Shown: piece after piece, positions 2,357 through 48,163 of the stretch
How the letters are laid out: every line of letters starts with the position of its first letter
How positions within the stretch are numbered: position 1 is the first letter of the stretch
From: a phage
Reading direction: 5' to 3' (one strand)
Sequence record: PV730300.1
DNA: 64,000 nucleotides
Translations under genes and position numbers: made by a program
Notes under the pieces: model-generated
Database searches by the model: none
Told to the model about the DNA's origin: nothing
The model's input: the letters and a program-made list of their open reading frames with translations, nothing else

Positions 2357-2701
2357 ATGTCAAACCCAGAATTGAAACGTTACTTTAGTTATCACGAAAT
2401 GATTCGTGATTTCGAATCGCTTTCACCACTGATCGATGCTGATAAAACATTAGTATCTGCGCCACCAATGTCTTTCTATCTGAAAGATGGTCGTATTGCA
2501 TTAGGTGGAAACTTCATTCACTTCCTCACGCGTTTGAGAGAAGAAACAGGTATTCTTGTGCATCCTTTTGCAAGCGAAGAACACATGGGTTACTATCTTG
2601 TAAGTTACGAAGACTATGCACCTGTAAAAATCAAAGAAGAAGTTTTAAAAGTAGAAGCGGTAGACACTCCAGCTAAAAAACGTTCCCTTCGTAAAAAATA
2701 A
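2357..2701 (+). CDS. Hypothetical head/neck protein
   Basis: ATG at 2357 preceded by GAGGAG SD; the longer listed ORF start (2303) lies inside the upstream terminator hairpin and is rejected. Confidence 0.45.
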   Translation: MSNPELKRYFSYHEMIRDFESLSPLIDADKTLVSAPPMSFYLKDGRIALGGNFIHFLTRLREETGILVHPFASEEHMGYYLVSYEDYAPVKIKEEVLKVEAVDTPAKKRSLRKK

Positions 2702-2710
2702 GGTGGGCTT

Positions 2711-3259
2711 ATGCTGAATGCGGTAGAGTTGGCACCACTGATCCGAATTCTTGTTTATAACCCTTCTCAAGAAGTATTGCCAGATGCAATGCTGATTCAG
2801 ATCATCCAAACTTGGATTGATATCATAGGGAATGAAGATAAGGATAAGTGTGCAGTATTGTGGAACAGCTTGATTTCTGTTTTAGAGTATTTATGGAACA
2901 ACGATGTTCTTAACAACAGTACTCAAACAGGAGGAGCTATGTCCCGCAGAGAAAAGATGGGTGAAGTCGAAGTTGAAGTTAAATTTAACAACGGTCAAGT
3001 CACTTATAAATCTCCGTGGGAAGATATCTATCATAACTATTTAAATGGTCTTATGGTGATCCCTGGGTGCACGGCAGGACGAGGAGCAACTAGCAAAGTT
3101 CTTATTGGCGGTGTGGATGCTCGTGAGATTGATCGAGTAAACAGCGATCCTAACTCTGTAAATGGTCTTGGTAATGTTGCAAGTGTTGATCGTAATACAC
3201 GCAACGTTAATTATTTGCGAAATTACGGACCTGTTTCTTTTTATCGTAGGGACAAATAA
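2711..3259 (+). CDS. Hypothetical virion protein (head-tail joining region)
   Basis: 182 aa ORF, tightly packed in late operon between capsid and tail sheath genes. Confidence 0.45.
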   Translation: MLNAVELAPLIRILVYNPSQEVLPDAMLIQIIQTWIDIIGNEDKDKCAVLWNSLISVLEYLWNNDVLNNSTQTGGAMSRREKMGEVEVEVKFNNGQVTYKSPWEDIYHNYLNGLMVIPGCTAGRGATSKVLIGGVDAREIDRVNSDPNSVNGLGNVASVDRNTRNVNYLRNYGPVSFYRRDK

Positions 3260-3747
3260 TGGAAAGTGAGATCTTACCAGGTGACGATACAGATTGGGGA
3301 ACCATTATCAAAAAGATGATGGACCTTGAACAAGTTCAAATCGAAGCTGGTTTTTTAACAAACAAAAGGCATCCTGAATCAGATCTCACTATTCCTGCAA
3401 TAGCAGCTATTCAACAATATGGTAATGAAACAAACAACATACCTGCTCGCCCTTTTATAACAGATGGTGCTGTTATCTCACAGAACAATATCGCTAAAAA
3501 GATGAAGCAGGTGTTTGCAAATTACTTACTGAATAATGTCGGGTTAGCTGTTTTTGAGCCTATAGCGAGAGCCTCTAGAGAAGGAATAGCTCAAGCGATT
3601 GCAATGCAACGTTATCGTCCTTTATCTCCTGTGACAATTAAGATACGACAAGATAAAGGCAACTATTCTAATCATATCTTAATAGATACGGCACACATGA
3701 TAAATGCAATCGAAACAAAAATCACAAAAAGCAAGTCTAAAAAATAA
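3259..3747 (+). CDS. Hypothetical neck / head completion protein
   Basis: 162 aa ORF, start overlaps upstream stop (translational coupling). Confidence 0.45.
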   Translation: MESEILPGDDTDWGTIIKKMMDLEQVQIEAGFLTNKRHPESDLTIPAIAAIQQYGNETNNIPARPFITDGAVISQNNIAKKMKQVFANYLLNNVGLAVFEPIARASREGIAQAIAMQRYRPLSPVTIKIRQDKGNYSNHILIDTAHMINAIETKITKSKSKK

Positions 3748-3748
3748 C

Positions 3749-3777
3749 TTGCATAAACTTTGTTTTTGATGTATACT
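3749..3777 (+). promoter_or_regulatory. Sigma70-like promoter candidate (TTGCAT-N17-TATACT)
   Basis: -35 TTGCAT 3749-3754, 17-nt spacer, -10 TATACT 3772-3777; followed by AAGGAG SD and GTG 3793. Confidence 0.3.
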
Positions 3778-3792
3778 AAAAAGGAGATACAA

Positions 3793-4209
3793 GTGTTACT
3801 AGATCAATTTACTCTCCTTGATCTAACTGAATACCAAGGTCGTAGACGAGTCTACAAAGAGGCCGTTGGTTCAGTTATTGCTAACTTAGAAAGTAGTGTA
3901 GAATATGAACCATTTACTATTGAAGCTGCAAGCTTACAACCGATATCTGGTAAAACACTGAATGCACTACCTGAAGGTTACAGATCTAAGGCTCAATATA
4001 GTTTCTGGACTAAAACAGAAATGAAGGGGTTACAACAAGGAACAGAACAGTTATCAGATCAGATATTGATAGATGGTAAATGGTATTCTGTTTATTCCCT
4101 TAAAGATTGGACCAGAACATCTTTCTTAGTCCATCATCACTGTGTTGCAATATTAGACGATCAAAACAACTCCTGGTCTTATGGAACAGAAGGAGGAAAC
4201 TTTGGCTAA
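3793..4209 (+). CDS. Hypothetical tail completion / neck protein
   Basis: GTG start with AAGGAG SD at 3782-3787; listed ORF start 3760 (TTG) is less likely. Confidence 0.45.
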   Translation: MLLDQFTLLDLTEYQGRRRVYKEAVGSVIANLESSVEYEPFTIEAASLQPISGKTLNALPEGYRSKAQYSFWTKTEMKGLQQGTEQLSDQILIDGKWYSVYSLKDWTRTSFLVHHHCVAILDDQNNSWSYGTEGGNFG

Positions 4210-4840
4210 TATTTACCAACAAATAGAAGCATACGAAAATGCCATCTACTTAAATATAGGTGGCTTCCTTCAAGAATTAGTGGGGTTGCCAGTCTATGTT
4301 ATGGATAAGCCATTCATTAAACCGGATACTCCTTACCTAGCACTACGTATTATCACTTCCAGCGATTCTGGAGGTTGGTCTTACCGAAGCTCTATTCAAA
4401 ATGATATGTATTCCTACGAGATGGATAATACCTACGAGATTGAACTTGTAGCCTATCGTGGAAGACCTACCACTTTGATGAGCTATGTTCTGGCTGCTCT
4501 CCGTGGTGCAGAGGAATTAAAATACAAACATCTCTATTCTAAAGGTCTTGGTTTTTTAGGAGCCTCCAATATAGCTCAAGCCAATACAATTGTAGACGGA
4601 GATAAGACTGAATTAAGAGCGCGTATGGTTATGACGTTCAACACTCGTATGAGTATTGAAGATATTGCTACTACACCAATAGAAGCAATCAACATGCACA
4701 TCCGTTCATTCAGAGATAGTTACAATGATCCTATCCCTTTAGATTTAATTCTAAACAGGGTTTATGCAATTACTTTGGTTCCAGGCGAATACTCGTCAGT
4801 CAATCAAAATGGATCATTATTTAACAACCCTACCGAATAA
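4202..4840 (+). CDS. Hypothetical tail terminator / sheath-associated protein
   Basis: TTG start at 4202 with AGGAGG SD (4191-4196) overlapping upstream stop; alternative ATG 4181. Confidence 0.45.
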   Translation: MANIYQQIEAYENAIYLNIGGFLQELVGLPVYVMDKPFIKPDTPYLALRIITSSDSGGWSYRSSIQNDMYSYEMDNTYEIELVAYRGRPTTLMSYVLAALRGAEELKYKHLYSKGLGFLGASNIAQANTIVDGDKTELRARMVMTFNTRMSIEDIATTPIEAINMHIRSFRDSYNDPIPLDLILNRVYAITLVPGEYSSVNQNGSLFNNPTE

Positions 4841-4874
4841 ACTCATTGGAATTAAGTTTCTAACAGGAGCATAA

Positions 4875-6248
4875 ATGGCAACTTTTCGTGAAAAGGTAGC
4901 AACCGTAACTTTACTGTATGGTGCTACATCAATTCGTGAAACCCAGTTCGATATTCCCCTGATCCTTACAGGTCAGAACGTAACTGGCGAAGCGATTCAA
5001 TATTACTCTTCTTCCGATGCACTTTTGGAAGCAGGTTATGGATTAAATGATCCAGCGTATATTATGGCAGTCAAACTGTTTAACGGTTTGTTCCCACCAG
5101 ATCAAGTCATGGTTGGTAAGCGTGAAGTTACAAACTTTACTCTAACTCCAATCGTAGAAGATAGTGCAACTTACACAATTACCATCAAAAATGGTACCAA
5201 GAAAAAAGAATTTAAATTCATTGCTGATGACACTGCAACTGCACAAGAGATTGTAGTTGGTCTGACTGAAATGATCAATGCAGATCTTGTTTATGGCCCA
5301 CTGTTTACAGTAGCTAACAACGGCGCTGCAATGACTTTCACTCCAGTAGAAGGTAAGTTTGGTTCTATTGACAGCACAGGTTTCACTCAAGAAACTGTCT
5401 ATGCTAATGCTATTACGGAAGATATCGCTGCTCTGCATGATATTGATAGTAGCTGGTTCTGGACCCTTTCAGATTCCCATGAAACAGAAGATGTTCTAGC
5501 TTTGGCTGCATGGGTAGAAGAGAATGATAAAGTTTACTTCTTCTCTAGCTCTGAACCTGGAATTAAAACGAAAGCAGAAGATAACGTTCTGGAACGACTG
5601 AATGACCTCGGTTATAATAACACTTGCTTTGCTTTGTGGATGACCGATGCAGATTCTGTATTCCCAGAAGCGGCAGTTGTTGGTGCAATCTGTTCTCGTC
5701 AACCTGGTTTAACTACTCTTCACGGTAAAACACTGGTAGGTGTAGAGATCGAGAAACTGGATCAGACTTCGGAAAACAATATTGTTCAACAGAACGGTAA
5801 CATCTATCGTAAAGAGCATGGAACTCTGTTCTATCGTGATGGATTGATGGTTAGCGGTTTCTTTGTTGACTATGTTGTTCATGCTTTGTGGTTTAAAGCT
5901 CGCACAGAAGAATCACTGTTTACACTGTTTAAACAACAGTCTATGCTGGGTGGTGGTGTTCGTGCTACTTCAAACGGTCTGGCTTTGATTCGACAAGCTG
6001 TTCTGGCTAACCCGATCCAAGTAGGTATCCTCAACGGTTCCATCGCTAATGAAGTTGTTACTTCTGAAGAGACTGGTTTGCGTGTCGATCTGAAACCTAT
6101 TGTTTATATTCCTTCTCGTGCCGATATGACTGATGCGCAAATCAATGCTCGTCTGGTCGATGGGATGAAGATTGAATATGTTTACGCTGGCTTCTTCCAT
6201 TACGTTAAAGTTCAGGTCAACGTCCTGACTAACCGTACTGCAAACTAA
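4875..6248 (+). CDS. Contractile tail sheath protein
   Basis: 457 aa ORF immediately upstream of a small tube-size ORF, the chaperone frameshift pair and the tape measure gene: canonical myovirus order; identity is by position and size, not by a motif. Confidence 0.6.
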   Translation: MATFREKVATVTLLYGATSIRETQFDIPLILTGQNVTGEAIQYYSSSDALLEAGYGLNDPAYIMAVKLFNGLFPPDQVMVGKREVTNFTLTPIVEDSATYTITIKNGTKKKEFKFIADDTATAQEIVVGLTEMINADLVYGPLFTVANNGAAMTFTPVEGKFGSIDSTGFTQETVYANAITEDIAALHDIDSSWFWTLSDSHETEDVLALAAWVEENDKVYFFSSSEPGIKTKAEDNVLERLNDLGYNNTCFALWMTDADSVFPEAAVVGAICSRQPGLTTLHGKTLVGVEIEKLDQTSENNIVQQNGNIYRKEHGTLFYRDGLMVSGFFVDYVVHALWFKARTEESLFTLFKQQSMLGGGVRATSNGLALIRQAVLANPIQVGILNGSIANEVVTSEETGLRVDLKPIVYIPSRADMTDAQINARLVDGMKIEYVYAGFFHYVKVQVNVLTNRTAN

Positions 6249-22067: not shown

Positions 22068-22220
22068 ATGAACGAATTATTCTCCCAAGGCGGTATTGCC
22101 CCAGGTATTACTGCCATTGGTCTTAGTGCTGCCGGAGTATTAGTTCACTCTGCTGGTAATGTGGACCTTGGGGAATTAGCTGCATATCGTGATTTAAAAA
22201 GTAATGAGAACGCACTATGA
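22068..22220 (+). CDS. Small membrane protein (1 predicted TM helix), 50 aa
   Basis: ATG with AAGAGG SD; hydrophobic stretch IAPGITAIGLSAAGVLV; stop overlaps next start (ATGA); below the 60-aa ORF track cutoff. Confidence 0.35.
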   Translation: MNELFSQGGIAPGITAIGLSAAGVLVHSAGNVDLGELAAYRDLKSNENAL

Positions 22221-22459
22221 GAAAATTTTTAATAGGTATGTTCTGTACATATCCTGATAATAAAGTCAGTTCTACGAAAGTCTGGAACGCTGTAGGCATG
22301 TCGGTTATGACAGGCATGTTTATCTTTTTAGGAATAGAAAAAGAAATTCCTGAATGGATGGGTTGGGCTTTTGTTTTCATGATAACTCCTTCTCGCCTCA
22401 TGAAAAATCTTATTGATTTACGCTGGGGCAGATCACAATCTACCAAAGAGGATGACTAA
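22217..22459 (+). CDS. Small membrane protein with two predicted TM helices and charged C-terminus (holin-like topology)
   Basis: 80 aa; hydrophobic segments VWNAVGMSVMTGMFIFLGI and WMGWAFVFMITP; C-terminal RWGRSQSTKEDD. Confidence 0.4.
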   Translation: MRKFLIGMFCTYPDNKVSSTKVWNAVGMSVMTGMFIFLGIEKEIPEWMGWAFVFMITPSRLMKNLIDLRWGRSQSTKEDD

Positions 22460-26204: not shown

Positions 26205-26540
26205 ATGGAATTTCAAGAAGCATGGGGACTTGCAAAGGATGCAATAATCCCTTTAATCGGAGTCATCTGGTTCTTTTTCAAACAAAAAATGGATAAATTC
26301 GGCTCTGATCTTGAGGAAATGGAGGAGAAAAGTCGAGAGCTAGAGAAGAAGTTGGTCTTTGTTGAATCAACTTATGCAACTAAAGCCGAACTTACCCAGA
26401 TGCTAAATCAAATTAACTCTACATTAATGGCAAATAATAACACCCTTGAGCAAAAAATTGAAAAGATTATGGACCTCAAGAATGCGACTATCCAAATGAT
26501 GCTAGATGACATAGTTAAACGTACACAGAATAAGGGGTAA
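26205..26540 (+). CDS. Membrane-anchored coiled-coil protein
   Basis: 111 aa; N-terminal hydrophobic helix AIIPLIGVIWFFF then Glu/Lys-rich predicted coiled coil. Confidence 0.4.
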   Translation: MEFQEAWGLAKDAIIPLIGVIWFFFKQKMDKFGSDLEEMEEKSRELEKKLVFVESTYATKAELTQMLNQINSTLMANNNTLEQKIEKIMDLKNATIQMMLDDIVKRTQNKG

Positions 26541-34007: not shown

Positions 34008-34908
34008 ATTGCAGTCCAATAGGGGCAAAAGGAATATCTTCATCGAAGTCCATTGGAGGTTCTTCTTGATTACTTGGAGTTGGTTCTGGTTGTGGTTCAG
34101 GTTTCTTAACTTCTTTCTTCTCTTCTTTCTTAGGTTGTTCTGCGGAACCACGGATGGCAGCAGCAACTTTATCAGACAGAGCCAGAACTTTACGAGCAGA
34201 GTCAATCAGATCTTCTACAGATACAGTCTTAATGGTATGGTCTTTACAAGCATTGAGGATAGCGTGACCAACAGATGCCCCAAGATCATAATCATTAATA
34301 TCAACGCCACGAGATTCAGCAATTTCCGATTTCAGTGTGACAGTTGCAGATTGAACAACCCCAGCGATATCGAAAGCATCGCCTTTAACACCATTACGAA
34401 TCAGTTCCAGTGCACCATTTACTGCGTGACCAGTTTCCAGACCTACAGTATCACGTTTTTTATAGGATTGCTTAGGAGCATCGTTGGAACCTTTATTGCC
34501 AGAAGATTTGTTAGACTTCTGAACACCATCGGTAGACAATACTGTAATACGAGATTTTTTAGTATTGTAGTAAGTCTTACCGCCTTTATTATCAACGCGA
34601 TCAATATCAATACTTACTTCTACACCTTTTTCAATAGTGATCCAATTATCACCTTCTTTGACTTGCAGGTTTTCATAACCTTCTTTCAGTTCAATGTCAC
34701 CAAGAGAAATCCAAACACCTTTCTCATCTGGTTTAGCACCTTTCTCTTTCAGAACAAGAGAAGCTCGGTGAGTTGAAACAATCGTTTTTCCTTCCCAATG
34801 AAAAGTTTTAGGTTCAGCGAATTTATCCAGTTTAACGTAGTCTACGATACCAGTTGCATAAGTTACGGTTTTGCCTTTACGATCAGTTTCAGTATTAATT
34901 ACGGACAT
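33979..34908 (-). CDS. Single-stranded DNA-binding protein-like, with E. coli SSB-type acidic tail motif
   Basis: 309 aa; C-terminal PSNQEEPPMDFDEDIPF closely resembles E. coli SSB tail (PSNEPPMDFDDDIPF) but is followed by 15 further residues that overlap the HNH gene start. Confidence 0.5.
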   Translation of the reverse strand: MSVINTETDRKGKTVTYATGIVDYVKLDKFAEPKTFHWEGKTIVSTHRASLVLKEKGAKPDEKGVWISLGDIELKEGYENLQVKEGDNWITIEKGVEVSIDIDRVDNKGGKTYYNTKKSRITVLSTDGVQKSNKSSGNKGSNDAPKQSYKKRDTVGLETGHAVNGALELIRNGVKGDAFDIAGVVQSATVTLKSEIAESRGVDINDYDLGASVGHAILNACKDHTIKTVSVEDLIDSARKVLALSDKVAAAIRGSAEQPKKEEKKEVKKPEPQPEPTPSNQEEPPMDFDEDIPFAPIGLQYGRNFLHCF

Positions 34909-34924
34909 TATTATCTCCTCTATA

Positions 34925-35317
34925 TTACATTAATTTTGCACAGAAAGAGCGGAGTCTTTCCATATCATCTTGCTCTAACAGGTATTTACCTTTACCTATT
35001 CCAACTCCAATTTCACCATTAGGAAAATGAACTATTTGCACTGGGAAACCTCCGAGTTTAATTGTGGCAGCTTTGCCTTCTTCGTCTATAACGTTTCGGA
35101 TTGTATCTTGCAGTGAAATGAATTCTTTGTTTGTAACAGTGGTTTCAATTATTTCAGATGTTTCAACACGAGCAGTTAGCTTCTTGTTTCCACCTTGAAT
35201 AACCAAAATTTGAAAATAAAAAGAGTTGTCAAGACCTACAACATTTTTCTCAACTAGTGTCAAACTGGTATAGTTTCCATAAACAGTTTCAACAGCTATC
35301 TTAGAACGTTCAGTCAT
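34925..35317 (-). CDS. Hypothetical protein
   Basis: 130 aa ORF in replication module. Confidence 0.4.
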   Translation of the reverse strand: MTERSKIAVETVYGNYTSLTLVEKNVVGLDNSFYFQILVIQGGNKKLTARVETSEIIETTVTNKEFISLQDTIRNVIDEEGKAATIKLGGFPVQIVHFPNGEIGVGIGKGKYLLEQDDMERLRSFCAKLM

Positions 35318-43530: not shown

Positions 43531-44478
43531 CTACAAACTTTCAATAACCTGGCGTCGCAATTCGTTTGCATCTGCCAGATTGTAGTGTGTTCGAACATGT
43601 TCCGCTAAGAACAAGCCACGATCTTCCCGATAGTTTGGATTGCGAAGAAGCTTAACAATTTCGTAATGCCATTCTGCTTTATTCTCTGCGTAAGCAACAG
43701 CACGAGCATCTACAGGGTTAAAATAAGGTAACACCTTAGAACAAACAATCGGAATACCTTTTGCCCCAGCTTCCAGGATTTTGAGATTACTTTTGCAATT
43801 ATTAAAATCATTATCTACCAAAGGAGCTATAGCAATAGCATGACTTTCGTAAACACTCATGTAATTATCTAAATCTTTTACAGCAGCTTTATATTTGGCA
43901 TTTGGTAAATTTCTGCGAATCTTAATCCACTCTTGTCCCGTGATGCTCTGCGATGCTTCATATCCCGCAATAGTAAGAAGTTCATCATCGAAAGTATTAG
44001 AGACTAGTCGTAAATCGGGTTCGTGACTAGCACCGCCAGCCCATACAACAGGGGTACCGGATGAACGATCATTTGACAAAGTGAATTGTCCACTATCAAA
44101 AGGAAGTGCATTTCGGATCACAACAACATTCCTATTTAAGTGACGGATCTTATATGCCAAGTATTCCGTAGTCACAATAACCACATCAGCAAGTTTAACC
44201 ATAGCCACAATAGCATGAGTGTTTGACTCGTATAGACTTGCTAAATAATGTTCTGGATTAAGTTGGTAGAAATCATCTAAATCTACAACAATCTTAACAC
44301 CTTGACGTTTCAAAGATAAAACGTATTCTGCACCTTTAGAGTGGATACGGTTAAACACAACAACATCTTTCTTAGGTTGAAGATTATGGTTGTTAAATGG
44401 CATAACAATACGATGATAGTCACAACCGCTGTGAGGTTTTGCATCAATTTTTAGTTTAGACCATTTTTTATTTGACAT
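43531..44478 (-). CDS. Glycosyltransferase, GT-B fold (paralog 2)
   Basis: 315 aa; shares blocks with paralog 1 (CDYHRIVMPF / CDFHRVVLPY; NNCKSNLKILEAGAKGIPIVCS). Confidence 0.55.
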   Translation of the reverse strand: MSNKKWSKLKIDAKPHSGCDYHRIVMPFNNHNLQPKKDVVVFNRIHSKGAEYVLSLKRQGVKIVVDLDDFYQLNPEHYLASLYESNTHAIVAMVKLADVVIVTTEYLAYKIRHLNRNVVVIRNALPFDSGQFTLSNDRSSGTPVVWAGGASHEPDLRLVSNTFDDELLTIAGYEASQSITGQEWIKIRRNLPNAKYKAAVKDLDNYMSVYESHAIAIAPLVDNDFNNCKSNLKILEAGAKGIPIVCSKVLPYFNPVDARAVAYAENKAEWHYEIVKLLRNPNYREDRGLFLAEHVRTHYNLADANELRRQVIESL

Positions 44479-45151
44479 GTGCTAGTGCCTCCTCATAGGA
44501 AATTCGGATTTTCCCATTTTTAATATCCTCTAAAGATGCTTTATATTCTTCCCAGTTAATCCCGATAGCAGCTTCTTTCTCTTCTTTTGTCAGATTAGCA
44601 AAAGGCATAGGATTGTTTCCAAAAACATCGTCTGGGTGGATATAAGCCATGATACGAAGTGGACAAGGTGTTGCCTGAATACCATGATTCAAACCAGCAG
44701 CTTTCAAACGGTGTCCCCATTCGGCATCTTCAAAACCATAACCGTGAGTGTAAGGGCGGAAATAACCCATCTTCTCAACAACGGCACGAGAATACATTGC
44801 AAATTGACACATTGCAAGTTCCCAGAGAATAACTTCTCCTTTGCTTCCAACAACTTTATCTTTGAAGTACTCCGGCATACCAAAGAAATCCCATCCTCCA
44901 GAAACAGCCTGATCTACAAAATATGTTTCCCATCCTTCCATGACTGGGTAGCAATCATCGTCAAAAATAAACCAATAATCATAACCTTCTTCATAGAACT
45001 GGTGCATAAGTTCATTCCTGGCATAAGCTACACCTTTACGATCTGGATCGTTGAATACTCGAAAATCTGCACGTGGATCTGTTACAAGGTAGTCTTTAAG
45101 TGGACGGACACCTACAGTGATAACACCCACTCCGATTTTAATATTTTCCAT
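44468..45151 (-). CDS. Glycosyltransferase, GT-A fold (galactosyltransferase-like)
   Basis: FIFDDDCYP (DxD-type) and GYGFEDAEWGHRL resembling the W-G-x-G-x-E-D motif of GT-A galactosyltransferases. Confidence 0.5.
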   Translation of the reverse strand: MENIKIGVGVITVGVRPLKDYLVTDPRADFRVFNDPDRKGVAYARNELMHQFYEEGYDYWFIFDDDCYPVMEGWETYFVDQAVSGGWDFFGMPEYFKDKVVGSKGEVILWELAMCQFAMYSRAVVEKMGYFRPYTHGYGFEDAEWGHRLKAAGLNHGIQATPCPLRIMAYIHPDDVFGNNPMPFANLTKEEKEAAIGINWEEYKASLEDIKNGKIRISYEEALAHVK

Positions 45152-45159
45152 TTTCTCTC

Positions 45160-45723
45160 CTAAATAGTTTTACTGTGATCATGACAGTGTAATAAATGAT
45201 GTATAGACCGTTGAGGATTTGTTTGACCTAATCTGTAAATGTGAAACAGATACATTCCCCGCATCAATCCTAACCTCTTTCCTTTTTCATGTAAAGTGCG
45301 AGAGAAAATTAAGTCAAATTGGATAGATTTTTCTTCGAAAGGAATTTCATTCCACAGTGATTTCCTAAAAAGCAAAAAGAAACCAGCTAAAGGTGTTCCA
45401 AAAGGAACTTCTTCAACGTTTGTTTTATGATATTCCCGTGCAATTTTAGCATATTCTATGTGATTTAGAATGTCTGGGTCATCATTAATTTGGTTAGAGA
45501 AAAGCTGATAACCACTACCCAGCCTATTACAAGTTGCACCTATTACATCAAAAGGTGGGTTTGACATAATAAGCTCTTCAAGCATAGATGGTTGATCAGG
45601 TAGGAGGAACATTGTATCGGTATCTCTTAAACACACCCAACTATCATCTGGAAGAACGGCAATAGCTTCATTAATAGCCTTGCCGATATTTCCTGTCAGA
45701 TAGGGAGTAATATAATAAATCAT
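45160..45723 (-). CDS. Putative glycosyltransferase-like protein (GT-A-like, weak)
   Basis: 187 aa; LRDTDTMFL acidic motif; adjacent to three glycosyltransferase genes. Confidence 0.35.
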   Translation of the reverse strand: MIYYITPYLTGNIGKAINEAIAVLPDDSWVCLRDTDTMFLLPDQPSMLEELIMSNPPFDVIGATCNRLGSGYQLFSNQINDDPDILNHIEYAKIAREYHKTNVEEVPFGTPLAGFFLLFRKSLWNEIPFEEKSIQFDLIFSRTLHEKGKRLGLMRGMYLFHIYRLGQTNPQRSIHHLLHCHDHSKTI

Positions 45724-46424: not shown

Positions 46425-46946
46425 TTAACTCCCCTTTGGTAGATAGAAACCATGCACTTTATCTCGATAAACAAGACGCATATCACGTTCCCAGTGTGTC
46501 CTTATATTCCGTTTCTTGAAGTATAGAGCACCTTTAGTAACATCTAAAACAGACCGCAATTCAGGAAAATGTTTCTCTAAATAAAGTAAACGCTCCGCTA
46601 TTGCTTTTGCTTCCTGCCACTTATCTTTCTCTGTTACGTTAAAAGTTTTCGCATATGAGAATTGTCCTTTCTGGAACAAGACTCCTCTGACTGTGTTAGG
46701 GAAGTAGGTATCATTTCTTCTGTTGATTACCACATTCCCAACGGCATTCATTCCTTTTTTACCCAGACCGCGACCTTCTGCGTAAATTGCACAAGCTAAT
46801 AGAATTTTATCATTATATTGCTTTGTACATTTGTGAACTACTTTAGCGGTTTTTACGTTTGCAGCTTCGGCTTTCGCCACAACAGGTGTAAATGTAAAAG
46901 CAGTTAAGGATAGTAACGCAACTGTTACAAAGTTTTTTATCAGCAA
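46425..46946 (-). CDS. Secreted cell-wall hydrolase (SleB/CwlJ-type), candidate endolysin
   Basis: N-terminal signal-like sequence ending AKA-EA; LLACAIYAEGRG...VGNVVINR resembles the SleB/CwlJ hydrolase signature; TTG start with AAGGAGG SD. Confidence 0.55.
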   Translation of the reverse strand: MLIKNFVTVALLSLTAFTFTPVVAKAEAANVKTAKVVHKCTKQYNDKILLACAIYAEGRGLGKKGMNAVGNVVINRRNDTYFPNTVRGVLFQKGQFSYAKTFNVTEKDKWQEAKAIAERLLYLEKHFPELRSVLDVTKGALYFKKRNIRTHWERDMRLVYRDKVHGFYLPKGS

Positions 46947-46978
46947 ATTTTGCCTCCTTTTTAAGTTAACGAATTTCT

Positions 46979-47007
46979 AGTATAACACGATAGAGGCTTT
47001 ATTGCAA
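46979..47007 (-). promoter_or_regulatory. Sigma70-like promoter candidate (TTGCAA-N17-TATACT) for the hydrolase gene
   Basis: On minus strand: -35 TTGCAA (47002-47007), 17-nt spacer, -10 TATACT (46979-46984); GC hairpin at about 47008-47028 upstream. Confidence 0.4.
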
Positions 47008-47046
47008 GAGGGGGGATTTCTCCCCCTCAAAATCATTTGTTAATTA

Positions 47047-47649
47047 TTATGGACATTCATACCATTCTTTTTTACCACCGAAGGCCATCACCACATCACA
47101 AATATCCAGACCAGCTTTACCTACACCATATGCTTTCAGCTTCCATTCCCCATCTTCACGAACCAAGGAAGCCACGTGGCAGATTGTGTTGCCAGCTACT
47201 TCAGGAGCCAGGAAGTCAAAATCCAGAATTTCCACATTGCGCTCGGAGTCGAAGATTTTAAGCATACCTTCAGAAGCATGACCAAAACGTTTCAGACCTG
47301 TATCATCATCAATGGTCAGGACAAAGGCAATCTCTTGTGCATCAGGAGAGATTTTAGCCAGAGTAATATCAATCTGCTCCATGCTGCCAGTTCCATCACG
47401 AACATCGTCACCAGCGAAGGTAGAACGTTCAGGATCAAACTTGTTAGCATAGCAAACCAGGTGACGTGCAGACAGCATTTCAGGATTGCCAGCGGCATTG
47501 TGACGACAAACCAGTGCACTTACATCCAGATCCAGTTTAGAATCAGATTTCCAAGAGAATTCCAGGCGCAGTTCTTTCAGAGCCGGAGCAACTTTCTTCA
47601 GGGAAATTTTTTCGCTAGAGCCTTTTTTCAGGGAAATTTTATCAGTCAT
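47047..47649 (-). CDS. TerD-family protein (tellurite resistance / stress response domain)
   Basis: ISLKKGSSEKISLKK N-terminus, AGDDVRDGTGSMEQ, EIAFVLTIDDDT and REDGEWKLKAYGVGKAGL align block by block with the Klebsiella TerD sequence as I recall it. Confidence 0.8.
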   Translation of the reverse strand: MTDKISLKKGSSEKISLKKVAPALKELRLEFSWKSDSKLDLDVSALVCRHNAAGNPEMLSARHLVCYANKFDPERSTFAGDDVRDGTGSMEQIDITLAKISPDAQEIAFVLTIDDDTGLKRFGHASEGMLKIFDSERNVEILDFDFLAPEVAGNTICHVASLVREDGEWKLKAYGVGKAGLDICDVVMAFGGKKEWYECP

Positions 47650-47664: not shown

Positions 47665-47934
47665 TTATTTAAGTGTAATACCAGTTACAGTCAATTCTAC
47701 TTCCAAAAGCTTAGATGTGTTTTGGATTGATACTAATTGTGCATGATGGTTTAGTTCTACAGCAGAACAATCATTTTCCCCATCATCTACTTTTAAATAA
47801 ACAATGATTTCACTAAGGTCTAAACCATTTTCGTCAAATGCATTTTCATAGACGAAAGTATCTCCTACATCCAAATCTTTAATGGTAAGGCATCGTTTAT
47901 TTACTTTTTGCTCATCAATTTCGAAGTTTAACAC
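47665..47934 (-). CDS. Small protein, paralog of 48956..49300
   Basis: Shared blocks DLDVGDTFVY...GLD...VELTVTGITLK versus DLDVGATFMY...GLD...VDLEVTNITLKK. Confidence 0.4.
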   Translation of the reverse strand: MLNFEIDEQKVNKRCLTIKDLDVGDTFVYENAFDENGLDLSEIIVYLKVDDGENDCSAVELNHHAQLVSIQNTSKLLEVELTVTGITLK

Positions 47935-48163
47935 TTCTTCCTCCTAATGTTATCTCCGGTTTGTATATACGAAGAATTATAGCATTTTCATTTTCTTTGT
48001 CAACCCATTCTTCATAATCGGGCCATACATGAATCTCTACTCTACTTACAATATCTTCCATTCGCACAGTCCCAATGAAATACTCTTTGAGACTGCGTAT
48101 AATGAAAGCTTCTCTCTCGCGCCAATAATTTTCTATGACTTGAGAGGCAAGCTCGTCGATCAT
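47915..48163 (-). CDS. Hypothetical protein
   Basis: 82 aa ORF overlapping stop/start with neighbours. Confidence 0.35.
   Translation of the reverse strand: MIDELASQVIENYWREREAFIIRSLKEYFIGTVRMEDIVSRVEIHVWPDYEEWVDKENENAIILRIYKPEITLGGRSVKLRN

Follow-up and report, generated by a model that had tools for sequence, protein, structure and literature searches.

The analysis of the window, that is, the whole 64,000-nucleotide stretch of phage DNA (PV730300.1), revealed an open reading frame at 46425-46946 (minus strand), having a TTG start codon at 46946 and a TAA stop, which encodes a 173-aa cell wall hydrolase of the SleB/CwlJ family (Hydrolase_2) that is predicted to be exported. The reading best supported by the evidence, to which a probability of roughly 60% is given, is that this protein is a Sec-exported, disulfide-stabilised periplasmic hydrolase produced at low dose, serving as an accessory lysin of phAPEC8/phi92-like phages. 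The gene itself is already known, because it is annotated in dozens of near-identical genomes and the signal peptide has been described for relatives; phAPEC8-like coliphages widely share it as a well-known second lysin, so that it is an ordinary system rather than a novel one. The result corrects a tempting misreading, namely lysis by an unusual secreted SleB enzyme without a holin.

In the proposed mechanism, the protein would be exported by Sec by virtue of a classical N-terminal signal peptide, which signal peptidase I would probably remove after Ala26, and a Cys40-Cys52 disulfide would form in the periplasm, stabilising the enzyme. The dose would be kept low by the weak TTG start, the upstream hairpin terminator, the gene's own extended -10 promoter and an anti-Shine-Dalgarno (anti-SD) motif in the promoter spacer; mainly the promoter-initiated mRNA would be translated and the read-through RNA would be masked. 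The enzyme would most likely reach the sacculus independently of the holin, and would nick or weaken the glycan strands from the periplasmic side, rendering wall destruction at lysis faster or surer. The Rz/Rz1 spanins and a holin-requiring cytoplasmic T4-type lysozyme would act alongside it.

The assignment to the SleB/CwlJ family is solid. The profile PF07486 (Hydrolase_2) matched the 173-aa protein with E=1.9e-17 and 64.1 bits, against a gathering cut-off of 27 bits, over profile positions 3-100 of 100, and was the one Pfam domain found in the protein. A match to PHROG 938 'endolysin' was also obtained (E=1.2e-18), and the sequence matches in the PDB were exclusively Bacillus SleB catalytic domains (4F55, 4FET). 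The AlphaFold2 model calculated from a 60-sequence alignment gave a pLDDT of 91.9 and superseded a run on 15 close homologues (pLDDT 61.9). The model begins with an N-terminal helix (residues 4-19), passes through a coil of lower confidence (20-37) and ends in a globular domain (38-173), with a linker of about 15 aa following the signal peptide. The Foldseek search with this model returned 4F55/4FET as the sole significant matches (E ~1e-5, probability 1.00), with target-normalised TM scores of 0.72-0.75 against the SleB structures. The SleB/CwlJ-type hydrolase proposed in the initial annotation is in accordance with the Hydrolase_2 match, the PDB matches and the fold of the model. As regards sampling, a word-indexed homologue search yielded 18 close relatives only, and the diversity was obtained from an exhaustive profile search, having 17,203 matches at E<=0.001.

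The codon of the predicted catalytic glutamate, Glu57, lies at 46776-46778 (minus); its motif YAEGRG aligned with YGESRG of Bacillus SleB (4F55/4FET), whose Glu is taken to be the catalytic one in the SleB structures. The residues E57, R76 and H165 were invariant across the 60-homologue alignment. Bacillus SleB is a germination-specific lytic transglycosylase, and from this homology a Glu57-based lytic transglycosylase chemistry is most likely for the phage protein. The two share the catalytic fold and the catalytic Glu in Y-x-E-x-R-G; however, their identity is only 25-26%, and the phage protein is devoid of the N-terminal PG_binding_1 domain and of the YpeB partner, carries a predicted Gram-negative Sec signal, and cannot have the muramic-delta-lactam cortex as its substrate. 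A point against this reading is that Bacillus SleB needs muramic-delta-lactam, which is missing from E. coli murein; activity on the normal peptidoglycan of E. coli is an assumption.

The region upstream of the gene was analysed for the elements that may set its expression. The upstream neighbour is a TerD-domain protein (47047-47649, minus; TerD E=3e-28) having its stop codon at 47047-47049. It is followed by a G+C-rich hairpin, GAGGGGGAGAAAUCCCCCCUC (47008-47028, minus), which is a probable leaky terminator; the simple terminator scan did not call it because of its poor U-tract, and phage ASO2A annotates the corresponding hairpin as a rho-independent terminator. A -35 hexamer TTGCAA (47002-47007, minus) is then separated by a 17-nt spacer from a -10 hexamer TATACT with extended TGn (46979-46987, minus; TATACT itself 46984-46979), and the Shine-Dalgarno (SD) sequence AGGAGG (46953-46958, minus) stands 6 nt ahead of the TTG start. 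The promoter-like site showed 9/12 consensus matches in the scan. As such sites are frequent in the AT-rich DNA of this region (17 sites in 3 kb versus 7.1 expected), the promoter match alone is weak.

The conservation of these elements was therefore considered together with the scan. The intergenic region was compared in ten lineages, comprising the window, a phi92-like phage, phiWec190 and seven metagenomic contigs, the lowest protein identity being 59%. The hairpin, the -35 TTGC, the T(G/A)TGnTAnAAT element, the AGGAGG and the TTG start were kept in all ten, thereby bearing out the strong SD and the own sigma70-like promoter (TTGCAA-17-TGnTATACT) that had been claimed for the gene. TTG serves as start codon in 10/10 Stephanstirmvirinae lineages, and two Vequintavirinae use TTG or GTG. 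The leader RNA of the promoter-initiated transcript, which begins downstream of the -10 and hence is devoid of the -35/spacer segment, is essentially unstructured (-2.9 kcal/mol, z=0.78). A perfect sigma70 consensus, TTGACA-16-TGnTATAAT (12/12), was also observed at 47976-48003 (minus) inside the small ORF 47915-48163, upstream of the ORF 47665-47934 and of the TerD gene; it would yield read-through transcripts reaching the SleB gene.

The spacer of a promoter normally drifts in sequence. The motif CCUCU/CCUCCU was found in the spacer of all ten lineages, and in the window it reads GCCUCU (46992-46997, minus), a predicted anti-SD on the grounds of folding and conservation. In the read-through RNA, the predicted partner of GCCUCU is the SD GGAGGC, and that of GCAA in the -35 hexamer is UUGC of the start region (46992-47007 with 46944-46958, minus), by which both the SD and the start codon would be masked in read-through transcripts. 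The probability that the SD is paired with the -35/spacer segment was 0.67-0.99 in 10/10 lineages; when that segment was shuffled 200 times at matched composition, only 0-19 of the shuffles attained the observed pairing value. Elsewhere in the window, no promoter-like site combines an anti-SD spacer with a gene start behind it, and the Rfam search gave no known RNA element at 46700-47300. A column-wise covariation count gave no support to the SD/anti-SD helix, both strands being near-invariant or register-shifting, and the conservation of the two motifs among related lineages could have another cause.

McPheeters et al. (1986) reportedly described how T4 gene e (lysozyme) is translationally masked in early transcripts. 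The likeness to T4 gene e is that the lysin RBS is masked in the upstream-started RNA and free when the promoter lies inside the masking segment; the differences are that the internal promoter of the SleB gene is of the host sigma70 extended -10 type and not a T4 late promoter, and that the masking structure of the SleB gene is known here by prediction alone. The conserved weak start together with the predicted masking points to a tight limitation or gating of expression, as is expected for a dangerous periplasmic enzyme. The predicted anti-SD gating is the sole potentially new element of the gene, and it raises the question of RBS masking as a real timing device.

The genome type was established from the closest relatives. 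The SleB region shares 99.5% identity with Escherichia phage nepoznato and 99.1% with phAPEC8; judged by its sequence, the window is a Phapecoctavirus (Stephanstirmvirinae) with E. coli as host. In the relative EF1-1, a 166-aa T4 lysozyme homologue adjoins phoH (34545-35045, minus); it matched T4 lysozyme with E ~1e-47 over residues 7-165 and has the Glu/Asp/Thr triad. This homologue occurs at >=95% identity in 65 Phapecoctavirus records, including nepoznato (99.2%) and phAPEC8, and the number of records having the SleB region at >=95% identity is likewise 65. About 70 further, more distant Stephanstirmvirinae also carry it, the identity being 72-80% in phi92-like phages. An overlapping i-/o-spanin (Rz/Rz1) pair lies directly upstream of terL in EF1-1, and a spanin census lists phi92 and phAPEC8 (PMC6139136). 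In relatives, the T4-type lysozyme gene is located ~70-80 kb from the SleB gene (~70 kb in nepoznato) and the spanins ~50 kb from it. The tblastn search of the 64-kb window with the T4-like lysozyme and both spanins gave nothing significant, and no muralytic gene besides the SleB-type ORF was found within the window. The description of this ORF as the only evident lysis enzyme hence stands for the window; for the genome type it does not, as the relatives carry the T4-type lysozyme and spanins. A separate canonical endolysin elsewhere in the genome was one of the two findings that the initial annotation had named as speaking against its own reading; such an endolysin, the T4-type lysozyme, is present in the genome type, outside the window. 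As a side observation, the PDB entry whose sequence best matched the T4-like lysozyme of Phapecoctavirus was 7RGR ('Artificial protein L056', E=1e-71); the N-terminal ~70 residues of 7RGR and the EF1-1 lysozyme are identical, and the 'artificial' sequence largely reproduces a natural lysozyme.

The coexistence of two lysins is in line with published descriptions. A Phapecoctavirus with two lytic proteins, PF00959 and PF07486, has been reported (PMC10793346), two endolysins have been described for PVP-SE1-like phages (PMC12210895), an M15C peptidase accompanies a SleB-like protein in Septuagintavirus (PMC11370258), and T5-like phages carry lysozyme, holin and SleB all together (PMC3326045). The question raised is what makes so many large virulent phages of Gram-negative bacteria retain a Sec-exported SleB enzyme, tightly dosed, beside a normal endolysin.

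The immediate neighbourhood was searched for a holin by hydropathy. No transmembrane segment was found in the three downstream ORFs or in the upstream ORFs of the SleB gene, nor any TMD in the ORFs flanking either lysin gene (SleB-like or T4-like), which upholds the earlier statement that no holin is adjacent. The 'hol-like chemotaxis protein' gp122 of EF1-1 was considered as a holin and rejected, as it has no TMD. Two membrane proteins were observed in the tail-fibre cluster: an 80-aa protein at 22217-22456 (plus; phrog_1322), which has one clear TMD and perhaps another short hydrophobic stretch, and a 111-aa protein at 26205-26537 (plus; phrog_15210, a weak Rz-like match), in which a single N-terminal TMD is combined with a coiled coil. 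No holin is annotated in the genome, and these two are weak candidates for a holin or lysis function. The SleB protein thus differs from a canonical holin-dependent endolysin in having an export signal, in not being the sole enzyme and in having no adjoining TM proteins. It differs also from the Certrevirus arrangement, where a small 2-TMD protein overlaps the SleB-like gene; none is present at the window gene.

A different role has to be weighed here, in which the SleB enzyme would be the principal endolysin, which Sec exports early and which stays restrained in the energised periplasm until the holin brings the PMF down, with the T4-like lysozyme being redundant or having some other purpose. 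Lys44 of the Oenococcus phage fOg44 is said to be such a secreted lysin, restrained in energised cells until PMF collapse. Lys44 and the SAR endolysins P1 Lyz and R21 resemble the window protein as muralytic enzymes that reach the wall via the host Sec system and not through holin holes; they differ as sole endolysins with lysozyme folds, whereas the window phage type has a second, cytoplasmic endolysin. The nomenclature favours a principal role: the SleB-like gene is annotated as 'putative cell wall hydrolase SleB' or 'endolysin' in near-identical relatives, and in several records the RefSeq and PHROGs label 'endolysin' (PHROG 938) is given to it and not to the T4-like gene. Tight expression control, suggesting a dangerous product, speaks in the same direction, as do two homologues: CR3_087 is described as 'implicated in host lysis', and CB7_83 is toxic when expressed (PMC7344957). 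Against these points, a complete, catalytically intact T4-type lysozyme is kept in every relative; Stephanstirmvirinae, Vequintavirinae and T5-like phages, the groups examined, each carry the SleB-like gene plus another dedicated endolysin; and the gene lies in the replication block (adjacent to rIIA/rIIB in rV5-like phages), away from the spanins. A principal role is considered unlikely on this balance, and the accessory lysin remains the preferred reading.

The distribution of the SleB-like gene was analysed by tblastn, and homologues were found in 1094 phage records, with Escherichia (350), Salmonella (285), Klebsiella (121) and also Pseudomonas among the main hosts. The homologue groups include rV5-like, phi92-like and T5-like phages. 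The homologues of rV5-like phages, Henunavirus and T5-like phages have signal-peptide-like N-termini, reading MKIKIFAIILSAFLSLPVVAA/PK, ...SLTTAPAMA/TE and MKAALLLIAALTYSFNSHA/TY, respectively (the slash marks the predicted cut). The expectation that a signal-bearing enzyme of this family would be uncommon in enterobacterial phages is contradicted by these numbers and N-termini.

The phAPEC8-like genes (AFU62770/YP_007348567, nepoznato, ESCO5) code for proteins 98-99% identical to the window protein, and the Vequintavirinae homologues (CB7 gp83, CR3_087, rV5/PVP-SE1) are more distant, with ~35% identity for the rV5-like protein. The proteins of all three have in common a length of ~170 aa, a signal peptide, the H-x-C ... 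LAC Cys pair and a non-ATG start, and the genes share a place in a replication/early block and a separate coexisting endolysin. In the Stephanstirmvirinae, the SleB gene always follows vWA-TerF/TerD and precedes three small soluble proteins and glycosyltransferases; in the window it sits in the TerD/vWA and replication block, so that its assigned location inside a Ter/nucleotide-metabolism region is confirmed. The Vequintavirus gene instead forms an operon with rIIA/rIIB, overlapping the rIIA start with rIIB following. In RudolfGeigy (Vequintavirus, 2495-4974), for example, the SleB-like gene has a GTG start, a terminator hairpin directly ahead of it and a 4-nt rIIA overlap. One small ORF separates the SleB-like gene from rIIA-rIIB in Henunavirus, and in T5-like phages it is surrounded by replication and recombination genes in the early region. 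The arrangement in rV5-like phages suggests co-expression of the SleB-like gene with membrane-integrity and lysis-inhibition genes.

These locations bear on the view that the enzyme does not serve lysis and is an early or middle periplasmic wall-remodelling factor, possible options being sacculus loosening for cell enlargement, a murein change against superinfecting phages, or rII-type cooperation. The view draws on the early/replication-region location in three unrelated phage groups, in particular the overlap of the Vequintavirus SleB-like stop codon with the start of rIIA-rIIB and the early T5-like gene (PMC3326045), as well as on the host sigma70 type of the promoter and the dedicated endolysin elsewhere. 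Position is, however, a weak indicator of timing, because 'early' blocks also harbour the lysis genes of T5 and, here, the T4-like lysozyme, and the strong expression limitation and the toxicity suit a lytic activity equally. A role confined to wall remodelling is regarded as unlikely, the accessory lysin being favoured over it. A broader proposal combines several of the above features: the SleB-like hydrolase of phi92/phAPEC8-, rV5- and T5-like phages might be a separately timed periplasmic wall-modifying factor instead of a redundant endolysin, gated by the anti-SD so that translation is limited to RNA from its own promoter, and with a signal segment functional beyond targeting. This proposal is tentative and has a low probability; if true, it would amount to a conserved holin-independent step of the lytic programme in large virulent coliphages, one that has never been studied.

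The export signal on which the preferred reading, the accessory periplasmic lysin, depends was examined residue by residue. The predicted Sec signal peptide comprises residues 1-26, MLIKNFVTVALLSLTAFTFTPVVAKA (46869-46946, minus), with a predicted signal peptidase I cut at AKA/EA, and this N-terminus followed by EAANV obeys the n/h/c and -3/-1 rules. Its layout, MLIK-NFVTVALLSLTAFTFT-PVVAKA/EAANV, has K4 as the single basic residue, a 15-residue h-region from F6 to T20, P21 at -6, and small residues at -3/-1 (A24-K-A26, then E27). An alternative cleavage may occur after AEA28. The initial annotation had proposed an export signal, and the n/h/c architecture, the Pro at -6 and the AxA site, as predicted from sequence rules, agree with it. 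A lipoprotein or Tat signal was ruled out, as no Cys occurs before residue 40 and no RR motif is present. Among 15 homologues of 59-99% identity, the c-region varied most (mean pairwise identity of 41%, indels included), and the small -1/-3 residues were kept despite this drift, a pattern expected of a putative signal peptidase I site. In the exhaustive profile search, 125 of the best 150 representatives had a hydrophobic N-terminal segment. For CB7_83 (Certrevirus), the Vequintavirinae homologue, a signal peptide and toxicity in E. coli have been reported, and its homologues are stated to be present in all Vequintavirinae genera (PMC7344957).

The cysteines give a further indication of the destination. 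The segment between the Cys40 and Cys52 codons (46791-46829, minus) was identified from the Cys-pair pattern of 60 homologues as the site of a probable periplasmic disulfide. The pair C40 and C52 was present exactly in 21/60 homologues, including the phAPEC8-like clade and the Vequintavirinae, a different pair, located where the window protein has L49 and R87, exactly in 30/60, and precisely one of these two mutually exclusive pairs in 51/60. Such exclusive pairs are the signature of a structural disulfide, and therefore of an oxidising, periplasmic location; a Cys40-Cys52 structural disulfide is thus probable. The mature enzyme is predicted to be periplasm-competent and disulfide-stabilised, and may be of interest for Gram-negative lysin engineering.

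Two features of the h-region led to one more alternative being weighed. Within the Stephanstirmvirinae, the n+h region (residues 1-21) showed 81% pairwise identity versus 70% for the catalytic core (residues 44-100), which is atypical for a merely cleavable signal and could reflect a retained anchor or SAR role; the composition is rich in Thr/Ser/Ala (8/19 residues, 42%) with zero Gly. The idea that the segment stays uncleaved, tethering an inactive enzyme as a SAR or membrane anchor until depolarisation frees it, gains from this conservation and composition and from one inspected Pakpunavirus homologue, which has a hydrophobic TM-like N-terminal segment with no basic residue ahead of it, but it is given a low probability in view of the h-region without Gly, the Pro at -6, the AxA function kept despite c-region variation and indels, the clear AxA or SHA sites of wider homologues with unrelated h-regions, and the absence of an adjacent pinholin, SAR endolysins being devoid of a cleavage site, having a weakly hydrophobic, Gly/Ala-rich TMD at the N-terminus and being paired with pinholins.

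Just downstream of the SleB cluster, at 43531-45723 (minus), three glycosyltransferase-annotated ORFs were observed, and annotated relatives have a fourth glycosyltransferase further downstream. In the Pfam search of this segment, two ORFs gave weak matches below the cut-off, one of them being TET-associated glycosyltransferase (TAGT)-like, and the third gave nothing. These matches hint at a modification of DNA or of a surface glycan by the products of the 43531-45723 ORFs.
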